Shown one piece after another: positions 44,310 through 53,406 of a stretch of DNA of 64,000 nt. The stretch is from Syntrophomonadaceae bacterium (lineage in GTDB: Bacteria; Bacillota; Syntrophomonadia; Syntrophomonadales; DTU052). Numbering within the stretch: position 1 is the stretch's first letter; each line of letters begins with the position of its first letter. Made by a program: the position numbers and the translations under genes. The DNA lies in contig JAAYDA010000019.1 in NCBI GenBank assembly GCA_012729505.1, positions 234-64,233 of the forward strand, written 5' to 3'. The notes under the pieces are model-generated. The model did no database searches and was not told where the DNA came from. It saw only the letters and a program-made list of their open reading frames with translations.

Positions 44310-44396
44310 ACAGATAAAGGCAAACCTGCCGAAAGACAGGGACGCAAAGCTATAGGGCCTTTCTGAAAGCAGAATGGCAGCCTGGCCGCCGATAAT
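44310..44396 (+). promoter_or_regulatory. c-di-GMP-I (GEMM-I) riboswitch
   Basis: AAAGGCAAACCTGCCGAAAGACAGGGACGCAAAGCTATAGGGCC....GGCAGCCTGGCCGCCGATAA matches the GGCAAA..GAAAG..GGACGCAAAGCC..GGGTTRCCGA core. It ends about 30 nt before the 44427 start. Confidence 0.8.
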
Positions 44397-44426
44397 TAAG
44401 TAATTAAGTATTGGAGGTAAAAAGGA

Positions 44427-45689
44427 ATGAATAGAAAACTATTATTGAGTTTATTAGCTATCGGTCTGATCGCCGCCCTTATCGGCGGAGCCACCATGGC
44501 ATGGTTTACCGATGAAGAAGCAGTAGCACCGGCAACGTTCACCGCAGGAACCGTGGTTGTAGATGTGGATGGCCCGGAGATTGGAACTCCAGATGGCAAA
44601 TTCTTCGACAATGTTAACCCGGGCGATTGTGCCAATGTTGAGTGGAATGTAGTTAACAAGGGAACCAAGGATGCTTACTTAAGAGTAAAACTGGCCGGAT
44701 CTTGGACAGATGAAAACTTACTTAATAATAACGTATTCTGGGCCCCTGATCCGACCAGCGGCTGGAAGGTTTTTGAAGATGCCGAAGGTGCTGTATGGCT
44801 GGTTTATCCCCAGATAGTAGCGGGAACATATGACAACGAACCAGGTGAATTTGTATCAGTAAAACTTCCCGTCATCATCGGTTTTGACGGCGACCTCACC
44901 GGCAACGTATACCAAGGCAAAACCTATATCCTAGGCGGAGAAGGCAGCGAAGTACAAGCAATTCAGGCTTCCAACGACGCAGCCTTAGCATCATGGGGCG
45001 AAGAATGGTCAGAGATTCTGGGCAATCCTGATTATACAGACGCATACCTGGATGCTGTTGACTACTTCACCAACCCCGAAAGAGGCGGCTATAAGATGCC
45101 TTGCTATGACCGTGGTGATCCTGTAGAAGAGCCCGGTGAGACCACTTTATACGATGTAATCGCTAATGTTATCGTTGCAGGCGGCGGCTCCGTAGTCGGC
45201 GACGACACCAACATAGCACCGAATACTCTCGTAACCCTGACAGCAACTGCTAACGAAGGCTTTGATTTCAAGGGTTGGACCTTGCCCGCAGGCCTGGTCT
45301 TAACTGATGGCAATGAAGAAAGTTCTACAATCGGCTTTGTAATGCCAGCCAATGATGTGAATGTAACCGCTAATTTCGCAGCAACTCCTGCTCCTGTTAA
45401 GTACAATCTGGACGCATCAGCATGGAAATATTATAAGGTTAATTATTGGGAGTATACTTGGGTGAAAAGCACTGATTACGGAACAGTCGCCCCCACCAGC
45501 GGCTCATATGATAAAGACACATCAGTAAAACTGACTGCTTCACCCAAACATGGTAAGAAAGTAAAACAATGGGATGAATACAAGAATGGCGACTGGAAGA
45601 AGATTTCCAATTCCGACGGCAAGACCAGCATTAACGTAACAATGAATGCTGACAAAACTATCAGAGTCGTCTTCTGCGACTGCAATTAA
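44427..45689 (+). CDS. TasA/camelysin-like fibre subunit with C-terminal InlB-B-repeat-like display domains
   Basis: It has a SipW-type signal (GGATMAWFTDEE), then DNVNPGDCANVEWNVVNKG and NVYQG...VQAIQASN. The C-terminal GGSVVGD..VTLTATANEGFDFKGW repeat is also present. Confidence 0.7.
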   Translation: MNRKLLLSLLAIGLIAALIGGATMAWFTDEEAVAPATFTAGTVVVDVDGPEIGTPDGKFFDNVNPGDCANVEWNVVNKGTKDAYLRVKLAGSWTDENLLNNNVFWAPDPTSGWKVFEDAEGAVWLVYPQIVAGTYDNEPGEFVSVKLPVIIGFDGDLTGNVYQGKTYILGGEGSEVQAIQASNDAALASWGEEWSEILGNPDYTDAYLDAVDYFTNPERGGYKMPCYDRGDPVEEPGETTLYDVIANVIVAGGGSVVGDDTNIAPNTLVTLTATANEGFDFKGWTLPAGLVLTDGNEESSTIGFVMPANDVNVTANFAATPAPVKYNLDASAWKYYKVNYWEYTWVKSTDYGTVAPTSGSYDKDTSVKLTASPKHGKKVKQWDEYKNGDWKKISNSDGKTSINVTMNADKTIRVVFCDCN

Positions 45690-46644: not shown

Positions 46645-47235
46645 ATGCAACGAAAAATAGCGGCGGTACTTTTAATTCTCATCGGTCTGGCTATAGTAAG
46701 CTATCCCCTGGCCCGGGACGCCTACTTTGAATACCAGCAGAGAAAGCTGGCGGAGCTATGGCAGGCCGACCTCCAGCAGATCGACGGCGATGCTGCCATT
46801 GAATATACTATGGCCCAACCGGCCATCGATCTCACCAAAGAAATGGAAGGCCTTTTGATCATAGATAAGATCAAACTGACCGCCCCTATTCTTACGGGGA
46901 TCACCAACCGGAATCTTAATCTCTCCGTAGCCAGTGTGGAAAAAACAGGCCGCCCCGGCGAACCGGGCAACTACTGCATCGCCGGTCACCGCAGCCGTTC
47001 TTACGGTTTATTGTTCAACCGGCTGAACGAATTGGCCGTCGGGGATGATATTGTAGTCCAGACTGAGGATCAGACTTTTGTTTACCAGGTCACTGCCAGC
47101 AAGGTCGTAAAACCGGAAAATGTTGAGCTTCTGAAGCCTGACGGGGACCGAAAGCTCATCACCCTGATAACCTGCGATTACAGCGTAAAAAAACCCTATC
47201 TCCGCCTGATCGTCACGGGGGAATTGGAAGAGTGA
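46645..47235 (+). CDS. sortase-family transpeptidase
   Basis: It has an N-terminal TM, IAGHRS (catalytic His), TLITC (catalytic Cys) and LRLIV (Arg). Confidence 0.85.
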   Translation: MQRKIAAVLLILIGLAIVSYPLARDAYFEYQQRKLAELWQADLQQIDGDAAIEYTMAQPAIDLTKEMEGLLIIDKIKLTAPILTGITNRNLNLSVASVEKTGRPGEPGNYCIAGHRSRSYGLLFNRLNELAVGDDIVVQTEDQTFVYQVTASKVVKPENVELLKPDGDRKLITLITCDYSVKKPYLRLIVTGELEE

Positions 47236-49376: not shown

Positions 49377-50510
49377 ATGAAGAGAAAACTACTATTAAGT
49401 ATACTGACTGTAAGCTTGATCTCCGCTCTTATTGGCGGAGCAACAATGGCCTGGTTCACCGATGAAGCCAAAGTAACAGAAGTACATTTCCAGGCAGGAA
49501 CAGTCAAAGTGGCTACAGATGCGGATTCACCCAACATTGCAGTGCCACCGGGCAAATCACTGGATAATGTTAACCCGGGAGATTGTGCCACCATAACCTG
49601 GAATATTGTTAACGAAGGCACCAAGGCGGCTCAATTGAGAGTCAATCTAAAGGCATTATGGGATGCTGCTCCAGGTATCAGTGAAGATTTAACTTTAGAT
49701 AACGTCTACTACGTTCCTGCTCCTGACAGCAGCTGGGTTCTTTATGAAGACACAAACAAGGTGCTGTGGCTGGTTTATCCCGAATCCGTGCGGGGAACAT
49801 ATAATTCTGCAAATCCTGAAATGCCTTTAGAGCCTGCAGAAATACCGCTTACAGTCGTCATCGGTTTTGACGGTATAGGTACCGGCAACGAATATCAAGG
49901 TGCCGAATTTACCCTGGGCAGTGAAGGCAGCCAAGTAGAAGCTATCCAGGCTTCCAACAACGCCCCCTTGGCAGTATGGGGTGACGAATGGGAGGCAGTT
50001 CTCAATAGAACTTATGTGCCGGTAACTGGTCTGGACGCAAGATACATGAATTATTTCAGCCCGGGACAGCCTGGATATGAAATGGTATGCTTCCAGCATT
50101 TCATCGGTGGAGATGATAACCCTCCTGCCAATAATAAAAAATATAAATTGACCGTCGAAGTATGGGAAGGAGATAGTCAGCGAAACAGTAACCCGTGGAA
50201 GCTTGTAAAAAGTGACCAGCAGGGAGCATCAGACTATGCAGCTAAACTAGTAATACCTAATTTAGCGGCTGACGCAGCAGTGGTGAAATTAACAGCTAAA
50301 GAACACAGCACAGCGCACTTTGTAGAGTGGCAGTATAAAGATGGTTCTGTATGGAAAACATTGACTAACCAAGGCACTACTCAAGGCTCTGGTCAAAGCG
50401 CAATTCACGAATTGAACTTTCCTATTAATACCGAATTTTTAAATAATCCAGATCAAAACGGTAATAATAAAGATATTTATGTCAGAGCCCTCTACGGGTC
50501 TCCCCAATAA
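49377..50510 (+). CDS. TasA/camelysin-like fibre subunit paralogue with a different C-terminal domain
   Basis: It has a SipW-type signal (GGATMAWFTDEA). The first ~210 aa are colinear with the 44427 protein (DNVNPGDCATITWNIVNEG, NEYQG..VEAIQASN). The C-terminal ~170 aa are unrelated. Confidence 0.7.
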   Translation: MKRKLLLSILTVSLISALIGGATMAWFTDEAKVTEVHFQAGTVKVATDADSPNIAVPPGKSLDNVNPGDCATITWNIVNEGTKAAQLRVNLKALWDAAPGISEDLTLDNVYYVPAPDSSWVLYEDTNKVLWLVYPESVRGTYNSANPEMPLEPAEIPLTVVIGFDGIGTGNEYQGAEFTLGSEGSQVEAIQASNNAPLAVWGDEWEAVLNRTYVPVTGLDARYMNYFSPGQPGYEMVCFQHFIGGDDNPPANNKKYKLTVEVWEGDSQRNSNPWKLVKSDQQGASDYAAKLVIPNLAADAAVVKLTAKEHSTAHFVEWQYKDGSVWKTLTNQGTTQGSGQSAIHELNFPINTEFLNNPDQNGNNKDIYVRALYGSPQ

Positions 50511-50570
50511 CCTCCAAACCTGAAATCTAATAACAACAAGGGATGGGTAATCGGCCCATCCCTTATTACG

Positions 50571-50690
50571 TCCCCCCATTCTCCTCCTTCTCACCCCTCA
50601 CGGTCCCCATCTGCGTAAATCTGCGTTAATCTGCGTCTTCGTTCACCCTTTCGCCTTTCGCCTTTCGCCTCACTCCTAACTCCCTCTTGC
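50571..50690. repeat. mosaic repeat fragment (C-rich tract + ATCTGCGT units + TTCGCC units)
   Basis: ..CTCACCCCTCACGGTCCCCATCTGCGTAAATCTGCGTTAATCTGCGTCTTCGTTCACCCTTTCGCCTTTCGCCTTTCGCCTCACTCC.. is the reverse complement of modules at 63230-63290. Confidence 0.8.
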
Positions 50691-50730
50691 ATAATTATTT
50701 TTTTCTGCTAAAATTAGATATAAGTAAAGT

Positions 50731-50812
50731 TGATAAAGGCAAATTCGTCGAAAGGCGGAGACGCAAAGCCACGGGCCTAAGACCGGAAGGTTATGGTCGC
50801 CGGGTTGCCGAT
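50731..50812 (+). promoter_or_regulatory. c-di-GMP-I (GEMM-I) riboswitch, first of a tandem pair
   Basis: AAAGGCAAATTCGTCGAAAGGCGGAGACGCAAAGCCACGGGCCTAAGACC..GGTCGCCGGGTTGCCGATAA aligns closely with the Vc2 aptamer sequence as I recall it. Confidence 0.9.
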
Positions 50813-50831
50813 AATAAAGTGATGATTCCAT

Positions 50832-50869
50832 CATCTGTTTCGGTATCCCGAGGCAGATGTTTTTGTTTT
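50832..50869 (+). terminator. intrinsic terminator / expression platform of the first riboswitch
   Basis: CATCTG..(16 nt)..CAGATG followed by TTTTTGTTTT. Confidence 0.6.
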
Positions 50870-50904
50870 ATCCGACTCTTTGCGTAAAAAGCGAATAGCA
50901 AAAC

Positions 50905-50986
50905 CGATAATGGCAAATCCGTCGAAAGGCGGAGACGCAAAGCCACGGGCCTAAGACCGAAAGGTTATGGTCGCCGGGTTGCCGAA
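50905..50986 (+). promoter_or_regulatory. c-di-GMP-I (GEMM-I) riboswitch, second of the tandem pair
   Basis: AATGGCAAATCCGTCGAAAGGCGGAGACGCAAAGCCACGGGCCTAAGACC..GGTCGCCGGGTTGCCGAAG is nearly identical to the first aptamer. Confidence 0.9.
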
Positions 50987-51024
50987 GTGCGGAAGGCATT
51001 TAATCTGTATTAATGTCTTCATTA

Positions 51025-51062
51025 AAGTCCTCTTCAGGCTTACCCGGGAGAGGACTTTTTTA
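51025..51062 (+). terminator. intrinsic terminator / expression platform of the second riboswitch
   Basis: AGTCCTCT..(14 nt)..GAGAGGACT followed by TTTTTT. It ends about 30 nt before the 51094 start. Confidence 0.7.
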
Positions 51063-51093
51063 ATTCCGATTTTACAAAAGAGGAGTTGTTGAC

Positions 51094-51990
51094 ATGAGGT
51101 CCAAAAAGATTGCCGCCCGGCTTCTAACGTCGATTCTGGCCGCCCTGGTTATTATGGCAGTGTTCGCCGCCCCGTCCCTTGCCGCTGCCTACAGTATCTC
51201 TTTTTCGACTCCCACCATTCAGGTTGCCTCTCCCTCTGTGAACAATACCACTTATGATAAGACCATGTGGGTAGAAGGAACCAGCACCCTGTCCAAAGTA
51301 TGGATTTGTCTGCGGGGACCCAATGGCGAATTAGCCGTCTATCCTGCCGAGGTCAAGAACGGCAGCTTCGGTGAAGAAATATGGCTGCGGTTTGGAACCG
51401 GGAAATATACGGTCTGGGCCGGAGACAATGAAAAGCGTTTTGATGGGAAAATCCGCTTTGAGATTGAGAATTCTTCCCGGGAAGATTACCGCAATCTGGC
51501 CCCATCCGCCCAAGTCAACCCCGAAGATCAATTGATTCAAAAGATAGCGGACAGCATCATAACTGAAAAAATGTCCGATAAGGAGAAGGCTCGGGCTATC
51601 CACGGCTGGGTAACCAACAATATATCCTATGATACCACCGCTTACTTCAGCGGCAATGTTGGATTAAACTCCGCCGCCGATATAATTGCCAGCAAAAAAG
51701 GATTATGCCGGGACTTTTCATTTGTCTATGCTTCCCTGGCCCGCGCCGCCAATATTCCCACCCGGGTCGTTTATGGCGACGCCTGGAACTCCTCTTCCCA
51801 AGCCTACGAAAAACACGCCTGGAACGAATCTTTCATCGATGGTGAATGGATCAATATTGACACCACCTGGGATGCGGGCTATATCAACAGTAAGCAGAAT
51901 TTTGTCCGGGCCGCCGGAGACAAATATTTTAACGCCGATACTATAACCTTCGCCAAGACCCATAAGGTCACATCAGTAACCCTGTTCTAG
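51094..51990 (+). CDS. secreted transglutaminase-like (Cys-His-Asp) protein
   Basis: It has a signal peptide (..VFAAPSLAAA). The transglutaminase core is KKGLCRDFSFVY (Cys), KHAWNE (His) and NIDTTWD (Asp). Confidence 0.8.
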   Translation: MRSKKIAARLLTSILAALVIMAVFAAPSLAAAYSISFSTPTIQVASPSVNNTTYDKTMWVEGTSTLSKVWICLRGPNGELAVYPAEVKNGSFGEEIWLRFGTGKYTVWAGDNEKRFDGKIRFEIENSSREDYRNLAPSAQVNPEDQLIQKIADSIITEKMSDKEKARAIHGWVTNNISYDTTAYFSGNVGLNSAADIIASKKGLCRDFSFVYASLARAANIPTRVVYGDAWNSSSQAYEKHAWNESFIDGEWINIDTTWDAGYINSKQNFVRAAGDKYFNADTITFAKTHKVTSVTLF

Positions 51991-52044: not shown

Positions 52045-53406
52045 TTATTCATTTCTTATGGCTTCCAGAGCACTCAGGTTCATGGCGCGCCGGGCCGGAA
52101 TATAGCCGGAAACAACGCCGATGATGGTGGCAAATATAACTGCAATTATGGCCAGCTCCGGAACTATCACCGACATCTGCCCCACTCCCCCCATGGATTG
52201 CTGACCGTAAATTCTGGCCACTCCCTCATTCAACCCGAATGAGATCAGATAGCTAAGAGCCACCCCCATTAGCCCGCCCCCAAATCCGATCATGGCCGCT
52301 TCCAGCAAAAACATTTTCCTGATATCAGATATATTGGCTCCCAGAACCTTAATAATTCCGATTTCCCTGGTTCTTTCGTAAATGCTCATCATCATGGTAT
52401 TGGCTATGCCTATGGCTGCCACCAAAAGACTTACCGCTCCAATGGCGCCCAAAATGCCCATGATGGTGCGGGATTGTTTTTGCATGGATTCCAGTATCTC
52501 CGTGAGGCTGTGGGCCTGATAACCCATATTTTTAATCTGCTCCTGCACACCTTCTACCTTATCAATATCCAAGGCCTTTACCTTGATAGTCGAATACTTT
52601 TCCTCCTGATTGTTGCGGGTGTTTCTCTGGCCGGTAGCCCGCTGATCCTGTTCGATTATCTCTTCCAGCACCTTAATATTCATATAAGCATTCCAGTCTT
52701 TTTCATCATTGGAACGCACCAGAATACCTACCCCTCTTACCTCATGAGGATCCGGAGCCTTGTAGTCAGAATCCTGAACCGAGCGGCGCGGCTCCCCGTA
52801 ATTGTGATCCGAGCTCATCATAAGCTTGCCGCTTAATAATTTCACCGGCGGCTCCGGTTCCGCTTCCCCTTCTGACATACCTCCGTAGTACATCATCCCC
52901 TCTTGGTCCCGGGAACGGGGATTATAGAAATTGAAAGCCACCTGTTTGCCAAAGACCAGGGCATTCTTATCTGAGGATTGGAGCAAACGGCCTTCTTCTG
53001 CTTCAAAGCCGAAGTTCTCCATAACGTCGGGATTTATACCGACGATGGAAACACCGCCCACCATTCGGCCGGATACCATTTTCATGTAGGTGTTTTTTTC
53101 CGCCATAACCGCTTCAACCCCGGGGATCATCTCGAAAGCCGCCACTGCTGCGTCATCCAGCTTGGCATCCTGCCCTGGCTGGTCGGTGCTGTAGCCATAA
53201 CCTCCGCCGGAGTATACCTGGATAGTATTGAGGCTGCCCATGCTGGCCAGGCTGTCTTTAAAACTCTTCTCCATGGCCAAACCCAAAGAGAGCATTACCA
53301 CAATAGAAGCAGTACCGATAACTACTCCCAAAACGGTAAGAATGGCGCGGGTTTTGCGCCGCATCAAATTGCCGAAGCTCATGGAAATCAGATCAAGATT
53401 ATTCAT
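52045..53406 (-). CDS. MacB/FtsX-type ABC transporter permease
   Basis: It has an N-terminal TM, a large extracytoplasmic domain and a C-terminal FtsX 3-TM bundle (..IGIIKVLGANISDIRKMFLLEA..). Confidence 0.85.
   Translation of the reverse strand: MNNLDLISMSFGNLMRRKTRAILTVLGVVIGTASIVVMLSLGLAMEKSFKDSLASMGSLNTIQVYSGGGYGYSTDQPGQDAKLDDAAVAAFEMIPGVEAVMAEKNTYMKMVSGRMVGGVSIVGINPDVMENFGFEAEEGRLLQSSDKNALVFGKQVAFNFYNPRSRDQEGMMYYGGMSEGEAEPEPPVKLLSGKLMMSSDHNYGEPRRSVQDSDYKAPDPHEVRGVGILVRSNDEKDWNAYMNIKVLEEIIEQDQRATGQRNTRNNQEEKYSTIKVKALDIDKVEGVQEQIKNMGYQAHSLTEILESMQKQSRTIMGILGAIGAVSLLVAAIGIANTMMMSIYERTREIGIIKVLGANISDIRKMFLLEAAMIGFGGGLMGVALSYLISFGLNEGVARIYGQQSMGGVGQMSVIVPELAIIAVIFATIIGVVSGYIPARRAMNLSALEAIRNE

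Follow-up and report, generated by a model that had tools for sequence, protein, structure and literature searches.

Class-I c-di-GMP riboswitches arranged in series have been described repeatedly. In their review, Sherlock et al. 2022 counted 347 c-di-GMP-I doublets (PMC9481103), and the accessible part of a 2025 survey reports COG1305 transglutaminase-like genes of the Bacillota as an enriched target of tandem c-di-GMP-I switches, with 94% of the surveyed leaders being doublets and 6% triplets (PMC12452182). The layout that we describe here and its tie to this gene family are already published, and the present locus is a further instance. As far as the accessible part of the survey allows comparison, it shares with the COG1305 doublets the aptamer class, the layout in series with an expression platform for every aptamer, the gene family and the phylum (PMC12452182, PMC9481103), but while the published link is statistical, the OFF-type platform and its covariation with the aptamer are worked out here in silico.

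An experimentally characterised relative of this design is Bc3-5, a triple tandem from B. thuringiensis CT-43 that gives a more digital dose-response in line with the Welz-Breaker product rule and consists of ON switches, in which each terminator draws its bases from the aptamer (C245, P1 and P3) (PMC4759541). Our locus resembles Bc3-5 (Zhou et al. 2016, PMC4759541) in having near-identical class-I aptamers in series, each with an intrinsic terminator of its own. However, the terminators here are separate from the aptamers and predicted to belong to OFF switches, and the target of the two units is a secreted enzyme, compared with the surface-protein operon that lies behind the three units of Bc3-5.

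Assignment of ON or OFF function in this work rests on published structural criteria (PMC4759541; PMC9262584). In ON switches, such as that of pilM, the aptamer and terminator are mutually exclusive, whereas in the OFF switch Cd1 both coexist, and the Cd1 antiterminator arises when the aptamer 3' strand pairs with the terminator 5' strand (PMC9262584). In silico, the units at our locus share with Cd1 (Cdi-1-3) both the coexisting aptamer and terminator and the antiterminator that draws on the aptamer 3' strand (PMC9262584). Class-I switches of C. difficile have an OFF effect on six of seven responsive genes, including one for a secreted protease, and Cdi-1-12 represses the secreted protease ZmpI, which cleaves c-di-GMP-induced adhesins (PMC6200980). 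The logic that we propose, a secreted enzyme that would be shut off by c-di-GMP, is like that of Cdi-1-12 and ZmpI (PMC6200980), although Cd1 and Cdi-1-12 are single switches and ZmpI is a zinc metalloprotease and does not have a transglutaminase fold. Our reading is that the locus contains two independent and complete class-I switches in series, which act through transcription termination and are of the Cd1 (OFF) type, and we give this a probability of about 0.65.

Two aptamers in series and the parts of their leader

All coordinates given here are positions in the window, by which we mean the whole stretch of 64,000 nt that was analysed, and riboswitches were sought across this window using cmscan against Rfam 15. 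There were three matches, two of which form the tandem on the forward strand: aptamer 1 at 50728-50812 (RF01051, 84.3 bits, E 3.7e-15) and aptamer 2 at 50902-50986 (RF01051, 89 bits, E 2.6e-16), both far above the RF01051 gathering score of 35 and with their starts 174 nt apart. Each match spans positions 1-87 of the model, and in neither was a non-canonical pair flagged. Two near-identical c-di-GMP-I aptamers had been proposed at this site by the first-pass annotation, and the scan recovers both as full-length matches, with the earlier coordinates being right to within 3 nt.

In the RF01051 alignment both aptamers have a GAAA tetraloop on the first hairpin and a CCUAAG/UAUGG receptor in the second, and they are of type 1, which is defined by a GNRA tetraloop in P2 that docks into a receptor in P3 (PMC11218506). 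Using a mapping of Vc2 numbering onto Rfam columns that was made in the present analysis, we found G, A and C at the equivalents of Vc2 G20, A47 and C92 in both aptamers, in agreement with the consensus, and the aligned contact stretches read G-GC-AAA, GACGC-A and UUG-CC-GA in both. These three Vc2 bases contact c-di-GMP, with G instead of A at position 20 conferring selectivity for c-di-GMP over cGAMP (PMC6140456; PMC11218506); the G found at this position argues for c-di-GMP rather than cGAMP as the probable ligand of both aptamers. Since the genome encodes eight GGDEF domains, c-di-GMP is also plausibly made by this organism. Across the 2.45-Mb assembly there are three c-di-GMP-I aptamers in total, namely the tandem pair and one at 44310-44394 that is discussed below. 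Comparison of aptamer 1 with aptamer 2 showed 2 differences between GGCAAA and GCCGA and 7 across the full 85-nt Rfam span, and outside the aptamers, in flanks and expression platforms, the units aligned no better than background.

As had been claimed, each aptamer has its own terminator, a self-contained hairpin with a T-run behind it (50832-50869 and 51024-51061, both on the forward strand). Terminator 1, which was detected by a terminator scan, is a 12-bp hairpin (ΔG -16.9 kcal/mol) in which 50832-50843 pairs with 50848-50859 around the loop UAUC, followed by TTTTTGTTTT at 50860-50869. Terminator 2 was identified from folds, with 51024-51035 paired with 51048-51058 around a 12-nt loop, a T6 run at 51056-51061 and a platform ΔG of approximately -19.6 kcal/mol, and a simple terminator scanner missed it only because this loop is longer than 8 nt. 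The terminators begin 19 nt past the end of aptamer 1 and 37 nt past the end of aptamer 2, respectively, and neither has any base in common with its aptamer. With two aptamers of one class on the same strand, each served by its own platform, the leader has the layout of tandem complete riboswitches of the pseudo-cooperative type (Welz and Breaker 2007; Sherlock et al. 2022). The tandem is real and well formed, and it is probably functional.

Between aptamer 2 and terminator 2, minimum-free-energy folds also contain a spacer hairpin, GAAGGCAUUU...AAUGUCUUC (50992-51020, forward strand). From the sequence we infer a transcript start a few bases 5' of aptamer 1, driven by a weak candidate sigma-A promoter at 50687-50714 on the forward strand (TTGCAT, 16 nt, TAAAAT), which matches 8 of 12 consensus positions, one fewer than the scan threshold of 9/12. 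At that threshold the promoter scan of the forward strand from 50200 to 51093 returned no sites, including between the units. The same interval has a single open reading frame (50687-50887; 66 aa from a TTG start), a mechanical call that overlaps aptamer 1. A ribosome-binding site, GAGGAG, can be read on the forward strand at 51080-51085, 8 nt 5' of the ATG of the downstream gene.

Antiterminator pairing and the predicted sign of regulation

In both units, the only complementarity between aptamer and platform links the aptamer 3' strand to the terminator loop and the adjoining end of the 5' arm. In unit 1, folds pair CGGGUUGCCGA (50801-50811) with UCGGUAUCCCG (50840-50850) to give antiterminator 1 (50801-50850, forward strand), the target spanning the terminator loop together with the 4 nt of the 5' arm before it and the 3 nt of the 3' arm after it. 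This helix is present in the minimum-free-energy fold of unit 1 and contributes 9 cross pairs in the loop-truncated transcript. Likewise, antiterminator 2 (50974-51047, forward strand) is formed in folds by CCGGGUUGCCGAAG (50974-50987) and CUUCAGGCUUACCCGG (51032-51047), the latter being the end of the terminator 2 5' arm and the loop, with 10 cross pairs in the loop-truncated transcript and the same helix seen when the terminator 3' arm is blocked.

We assessed this cross helix in related loci using the minimum-free-energy folds of transcripts cut just past the terminator loop, with shuffled half-terminators as a control. A helix of 9-15 bp between aptamer and terminator formed in 20 of 25 units, both present units included, and was absent from the truncated fold in the other five, compared with 3.8 +/- 1.2 of 25 units when half-terminators were shuffled. 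When either present unit was tested singly, 10-12% of shuffles also reached at least 9 cross pairs, and the statistical support for the cross helix comes from the family and not from the present locus alone. Platform swaps between units gave a helix for aptamers ending GGGUUGCC with 67% of platforms of their own class versus 21% of the other class, while for aptamers ending CCAGYUGCC these values were 74% and 6%, respectively. At the level of sequence, the aptamer 3' strand and the terminator apex covary across the relatives. Within the present locus the same aptamer strand is paired by different platform sequences, UCGGUAUCCCG in unit 1 and GGCUUACCCGG in unit 2, and therefore each pairing has been kept separately.

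The Cd1-type layout, a separate terminator combined with an antiterminator that uses the aptamer 3' strand, was thus found in silico in both units. Because separate terminators together with complementarity between terminator apex and aptamer constitute this layout, c-di-GMP probably represses the gene, and we consider it likely that both units are Cd1-type OFF switches in which binding of c-di-GMP terminates transcription of the gene. The terminators of ON switches of this class use aptamer nucleotides, whereas those at our locus stand apart from the aptamers, as hairpins that begin 19 and 37 nt further on. Furthermore, the sole complementarity between aptamer and platform competes with the terminator instead of forming it, and an element that would let the folded aptamer block the terminator was not found in either platform. 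This makes it unlikely that both units are ON, with c-di-GMP preventing termination and the enzyme made only above a steep threshold as in Bc3-5, even though Bc3-5 is the only experimentally characterised tandem c-di-GMP-I system and is ON (PMC4759541), the 2025 survey, in its accessible part, assumes ON logic for tandem c-di-GMP switches (PMC12452182), and the gene adjoins surface-fibre genes that are expected to be c-di-GMP-induced.

Ligand binding, actual termination, regulatory sign and enzyme activity are what we infer for this locus, and under the OFF reading its operation would be as follows. In the absence of ligand, each aptamer would use its 3' strand (the 3' side of P3 and the C92/P1 tail) to pair with its own terminator at the loop and 5' arm, and with the terminator blocked by this antiterminator RNA polymerase would read through. 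With c-di-GMP bound, the aptamer would hold its 3' strand, the free-standing terminator would fold, and transcription would stop near 50865 or near 51060. Polymerase would have to escape both terminators, making read-through the product of two probabilities. In illustrative arithmetic with at most 90% termination per unit, residual expression would drop from 10% to 1% with two units, and half-repression would move from ~1.25 K with one unit to ~0.48 K with two. The enzyme would be made at low c-di-GMP, with a tight and steep shut-off as c-di-GMP rises. A response sharpened by the tandem, which the first-pass annotation had proposed, is known for such tandems, but here is predicted to apply to shut-off and not to switch-on. 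Its steep c-di-GMP threshold for matrix cross-linking runs against the Cd1-type OFF layout, which predicts shut-off at high c-di-GMP, and both the regulatory sign and the functional story given there are probably wrong.

In unit 2, the equilibrium fold without ligand favours the terminator, with aptamer plus terminator at -55.3 kcal/mol versus -49.8 kcal/mol, and since equilibrium already favours the terminator, the OFF reading of this unit depends on co-transcriptional kinetics. This preference would also suit a constitutive attenuator that is deaf to c-di-GMP, in which the aptamers may serve otherwise, for example within short terminated RNAs that bind c-di-GMP. There is a precedent in Bc1 of B. 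thuringiensis, a c-di-GMP-I leader that has two strong terminators and was found to be c-di-GMP-insensitive in vivo, locked OFF at any c-di-GMP level (PMC11218506). Nonetheless, the conservation of the link between riboswitch and gene at 20 of 20 loci in four families, and the covariation of aptamer strand and platform, both point to a selected switching function and make such an attenuator very improbable.

Occurrence in relatives and age of the doublet

The comparison set comprised 60 related genomes of the same order, or 61 with the present genome (G000). Aptamers of the c-di-GMP-I class were detected in 46 of these 61 genomes, and among the 150 aptamers listed, 25 of 121 leaders carry two to four on one strand, mostly 170-185 nt apart; the 174-nt spacing at the present locus is typical of the order. 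Separately, 26 other c-di-GMP-I leaders of the order showed mixed platform designs.

Riboswitch-controlled relatives of the transglutaminase-like gene are present in 19 other genomes among the 60 searched. Twenty loci were fetched, two of which duplicated others, and adding the present genome brings the number of gene copies to 20, among which a single homologue is more distant. In a covariance-model scan, every one of the 20 fetched loci had one or more c-di-GMP-I aptamers immediately ahead of the transglutaminase-like gene. Of the 20 gene copies, six have two aptamers (G000, G004, G012, G024, G028 and G041) and the remainder have one, including that of the same-genus genome G001. The link between riboswitch and gene is old and general, and its doubling, which would provide the steep response, is optional and not fixed. 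Absence of the doublet from close relatives had been named in the first-pass annotation as a sign of recent neutral duplication; it is indeed missing in G001, but a tandem before this gene recurs in five other genomes from three genera.

We then placed 29 aptamers in a maximum-likelihood tree, in which the G000 aptamers form a sister pair (support 100/98) with a long branch. Nearest to this pair are a G001 aptamer located ahead of a LytTR regulator gene and a G022 aptamer that precedes a distant transglutaminase-like gene, and the pair falls separately from the lone aptamer in front of G001's own transglutaminase-like gene. A sister pair set apart from all relatives, aptamer cores with only 2 differences, a same-genus relative with a single aptamer of another sequence class, and a tandem at just 6 of 20 related loci would all be expected if the doublet were a recent and effectively neutral product of duplication or gene conversion, with one unit regulating and the other adding little. 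We consider this quite unlikely, as both units have kept a full-scoring aptamer, a strong terminator and a differently spelled antiterminator complement, and platforms without residual similarity are a poor fit to a very recent copy of a whole unit. Tandems with a period of 170-185 nt, moreover, occur in 25/121 c-di-GMP-I leaders among the matches listed in the order. In genus g16, upstream units match the upstream units of other genomes and downstream units match the downstream ones, and G030 has a single unit of the upstream type; those tandems have therefore persisted and are old, and have sometimes been lost.

For G000 itself, a recent copy of a whole unit, aptamer and platform together, is unlikely, as the platforms do not align. 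Because the aptamers are near-identical and the platforms are unrelated yet each complementary to the same strand, the doublet suggests either that gene conversion took place or that only the aptamer was duplicated, with both units functional.

The enzyme, its neighbours and a possible role

The gene behind the leader (51094-51990, forward strand) encodes a 298-aa enzyme with an N-terminal signal peptide, a beta-sandwich and a core that contains Cys205, His241 and Asp256. It matches PF01841 (Transglut_core) with E 4.6e-23 and 82 bits, against a cut-off of 23, and the three residues are invariant in 19 relatives, which bears out the earlier description of the target as a secreted Cys-His-Asp transglutaminase-fold protein. 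The next gene (52045-53406) is on the opposite strand and convergent, so the leader controls this one gene as a monocistronic unit.

An AlphaFold model (pLDDT 88) likewise has a beta-sandwich followed by a transglutaminase core, and a Foldseek search of the PDB returned 3ISR, a putative cysteine protease, as the best structural match, with animal transglutaminases next. The fold matches as a whole mix putative cysteine proteases (3ISR, 3KD4, LapG) with true transglutaminases (TG2/TG3 cores). Searching solved structures by sequence likewise assigned the protein to the transglutaminase fold, again with hits to proteases and cross-linkers alike. By profile and modelled fold, the enzyme is a member of the PF01841/COG1305 superfamily that may either cross-link or cleave its substrate.

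LapG, found in Pseudomonas and Legionella, is a transglutaminase-like cysteine protease that acts on a surface adhesin at low c-di-GMP (PMC3032545). The present enzyme has the same Cys-His-Asp transglutaminase fold, with the likeness being one of regulatory logic and not of family membership. The Pfam scan of the enzyme matched PF01841 and PF04473 only, and LapG (4FGP) appeared at Foldseek rank 49 with E 2e-3 and a TM of 0.27 by query length and 0.41 by target length, and with no further Pfam match and only this distant structural similarity, membership of the LapG-type (BTLCP) family was rejected. Control also differs, being post-translational through the LapD receptor for LapG and by riboswitch here.

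The first-pass annotation had tied the enzyme to TasA-like fibres, a link that fared poorly in the wider comparison: relatives of the gene are present in 19 other genomes, whereas PF12389 (TasA/camelysin) genes were detectable in just 4 of 61, using a profile of limited sensitivity that covers only the N-terminal ~80 residues, and a conserved link to TasA fibres was discarded as a general explanation. In most relatives the transglutaminase-like gene stands alone, flanked by genes on the opposite strand. Recurrent families among 33 flanking open reading frames were LuxR/GerE-type regulators (6) and sortases (5), with a sortase gene lying immediately downstream, on the opposite strand and converging, at five loci in two genera. 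In the window, a sortase gene is located 4 kb upstream of the tandem locus (46645-47235). Sortase-handled surface proteins are a better-supported link than TasA as such.

The third c-di-GMP-I aptamer of the window (44310-44394; RF01051) precedes genes for a TasA-like/InlB-repeat protein and a sortase, and lacks a terminator. Minimum-free-energy folding places its 3' strand, GCCGCCGAU, in a helix with the ribosome-binding site UUGGAGGU, which has essentially zero unpaired probability. This aptamer is predicted to be a translational ON switch, with its 3' strand hiding the ribosome-binding site when no ligand is bound. If both sign predictions hold, the fibre/adhesin would be made at high c-di-GMP and the enzyme at low c-di-GMP. 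A tentative and, in our judgement, doubtful extension is a reciprocal wiring in which the fibre/adhesin is ON, the enzyme is OFF, and the enzyme is a cysteine protease that trims or releases sortase-assembled fibres at low c-di-GMP. Such wiring, if true, would resemble CD2831/ZmpI of C. difficile and LapA/LapG of Pseudomonas (PMC3032545), and the enzyme would more likely be a releasing protease than a matrix cross-linker. It would then parallel, in a Gram-positive setting and under riboswitch control, the part played by LapG and that of ZmpI with CD2831.

The locus itself is a clean further example of a published design and adds little. Its modest value lies in the sign of regulation, as the order's whole transglutaminase-like family sits behind class-I switches with OFF-layout platforms, and, going by the accessible part of the survey, this family is statistically the strongest target of tandem c-di-GMP-I switches in the Bacillota. 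If the OFF assignment is true, the family would be made in the low-c-di-GMP (motile/dispersing) state, which would point to a role in surface remodelling or release, not matrix building, and would give these secreted enzymes, a family that is widespread but uncharacterised, a concrete function that can be tested.

Surroundings of the tandem leader

Directly 5' of the candidate promoter of the tandem c-di-GMP-I leader lies a repeat block (window 50609-50667) containing three direct 10-nt repeats, ATCTGCGTAA, ATCTGCGTTA and ATCTGCGTCT, with the heptamer CCTTTCG occurring three times after them. These repeats may represent a regulator-binding site or the remnant of a repeat element. Sequences similar to this motif, CAGAUUUACGCAGAUG and UCUGCGUUAAUC, were also found 3' of an aptamer in L032, a locus from the related genome G016. 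Further upstream, a long, near-perfect 15-bp hairpin (50533-50569) is located directly 3' of the gene at 49377-50510 and has no T-run on the + strand; it may be the terminator of that gene, or a member of the hairpin-repeat families of this genome. Within the leader itself, a 66-aa ORF with a TTG start (50687-50887), which is a mechanical ORF call only, overlaps both aptamer 1 and terminator 1.

A third aptamer, and sortase genes beside the transglutaminase-like gene in relatives

A third c-di-GMP-I aptamer, together with its ribosome-binding site region, spans window 44310-44426, and the TasA-like/InlB-repeat gene (44427-45689) follows directly behind it. This aptamer reaches almost the same score with RF01051 (65.4 bits) as with RF03167, the GGC variant of the model (66 bits), and it lacks a terminator. 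Nucleotides 44385-44393, the aptamer's 3' strand, pair with the ribosome-binding site (44410-44418) in the minimum-free-energy fold, and the predicted layout ahead of the TasA-like/InlB-repeat gene is that of a translational ON switch.

Among related genomes, a sortase gene sits directly 3' of the riboswitch-controlled transglutaminase-like gene in L045, L024, L050, L046 and L048 (from G009, G010, G027 and G058), and in each of these loci it is on the opposite strand and convergent with that gene. G058 also carries a TasA-like gene on the same contig, 5 kb away.

Aptamer arrays in related genomes

G038, from the same order, contains four c-di-GMP-I aptamers at C1:2356130-2356983 (-) with a near-exact period of 256-257 nt, three of which score identically; this quadruple tandem goes beyond the triplets reported in the literature consulted. 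Elsewhere on C1 (2304298-2304476, -) two aptamers start just 91 nt apart, leaving a gap of only ~3 nt, and therefore a separate platform cannot fit between them.

Tandem aptamers also precede a LytTR-type response-regulator gene (L049 1323-2036, -) in G001, a member of the same genus. The upstream aptamer (2279-2364, -; AAAUAGCAAAC) has A at the position equivalent to the ligand-contact residue G20 (Vc2 numbering), and the downstream aptamer (2117-2202, -) has G there. An A at this site characterises the GEMM-Ib aptamers, which are selective for cGAMP, and the pair could constitute a two-ligand gate in a Firmicute.
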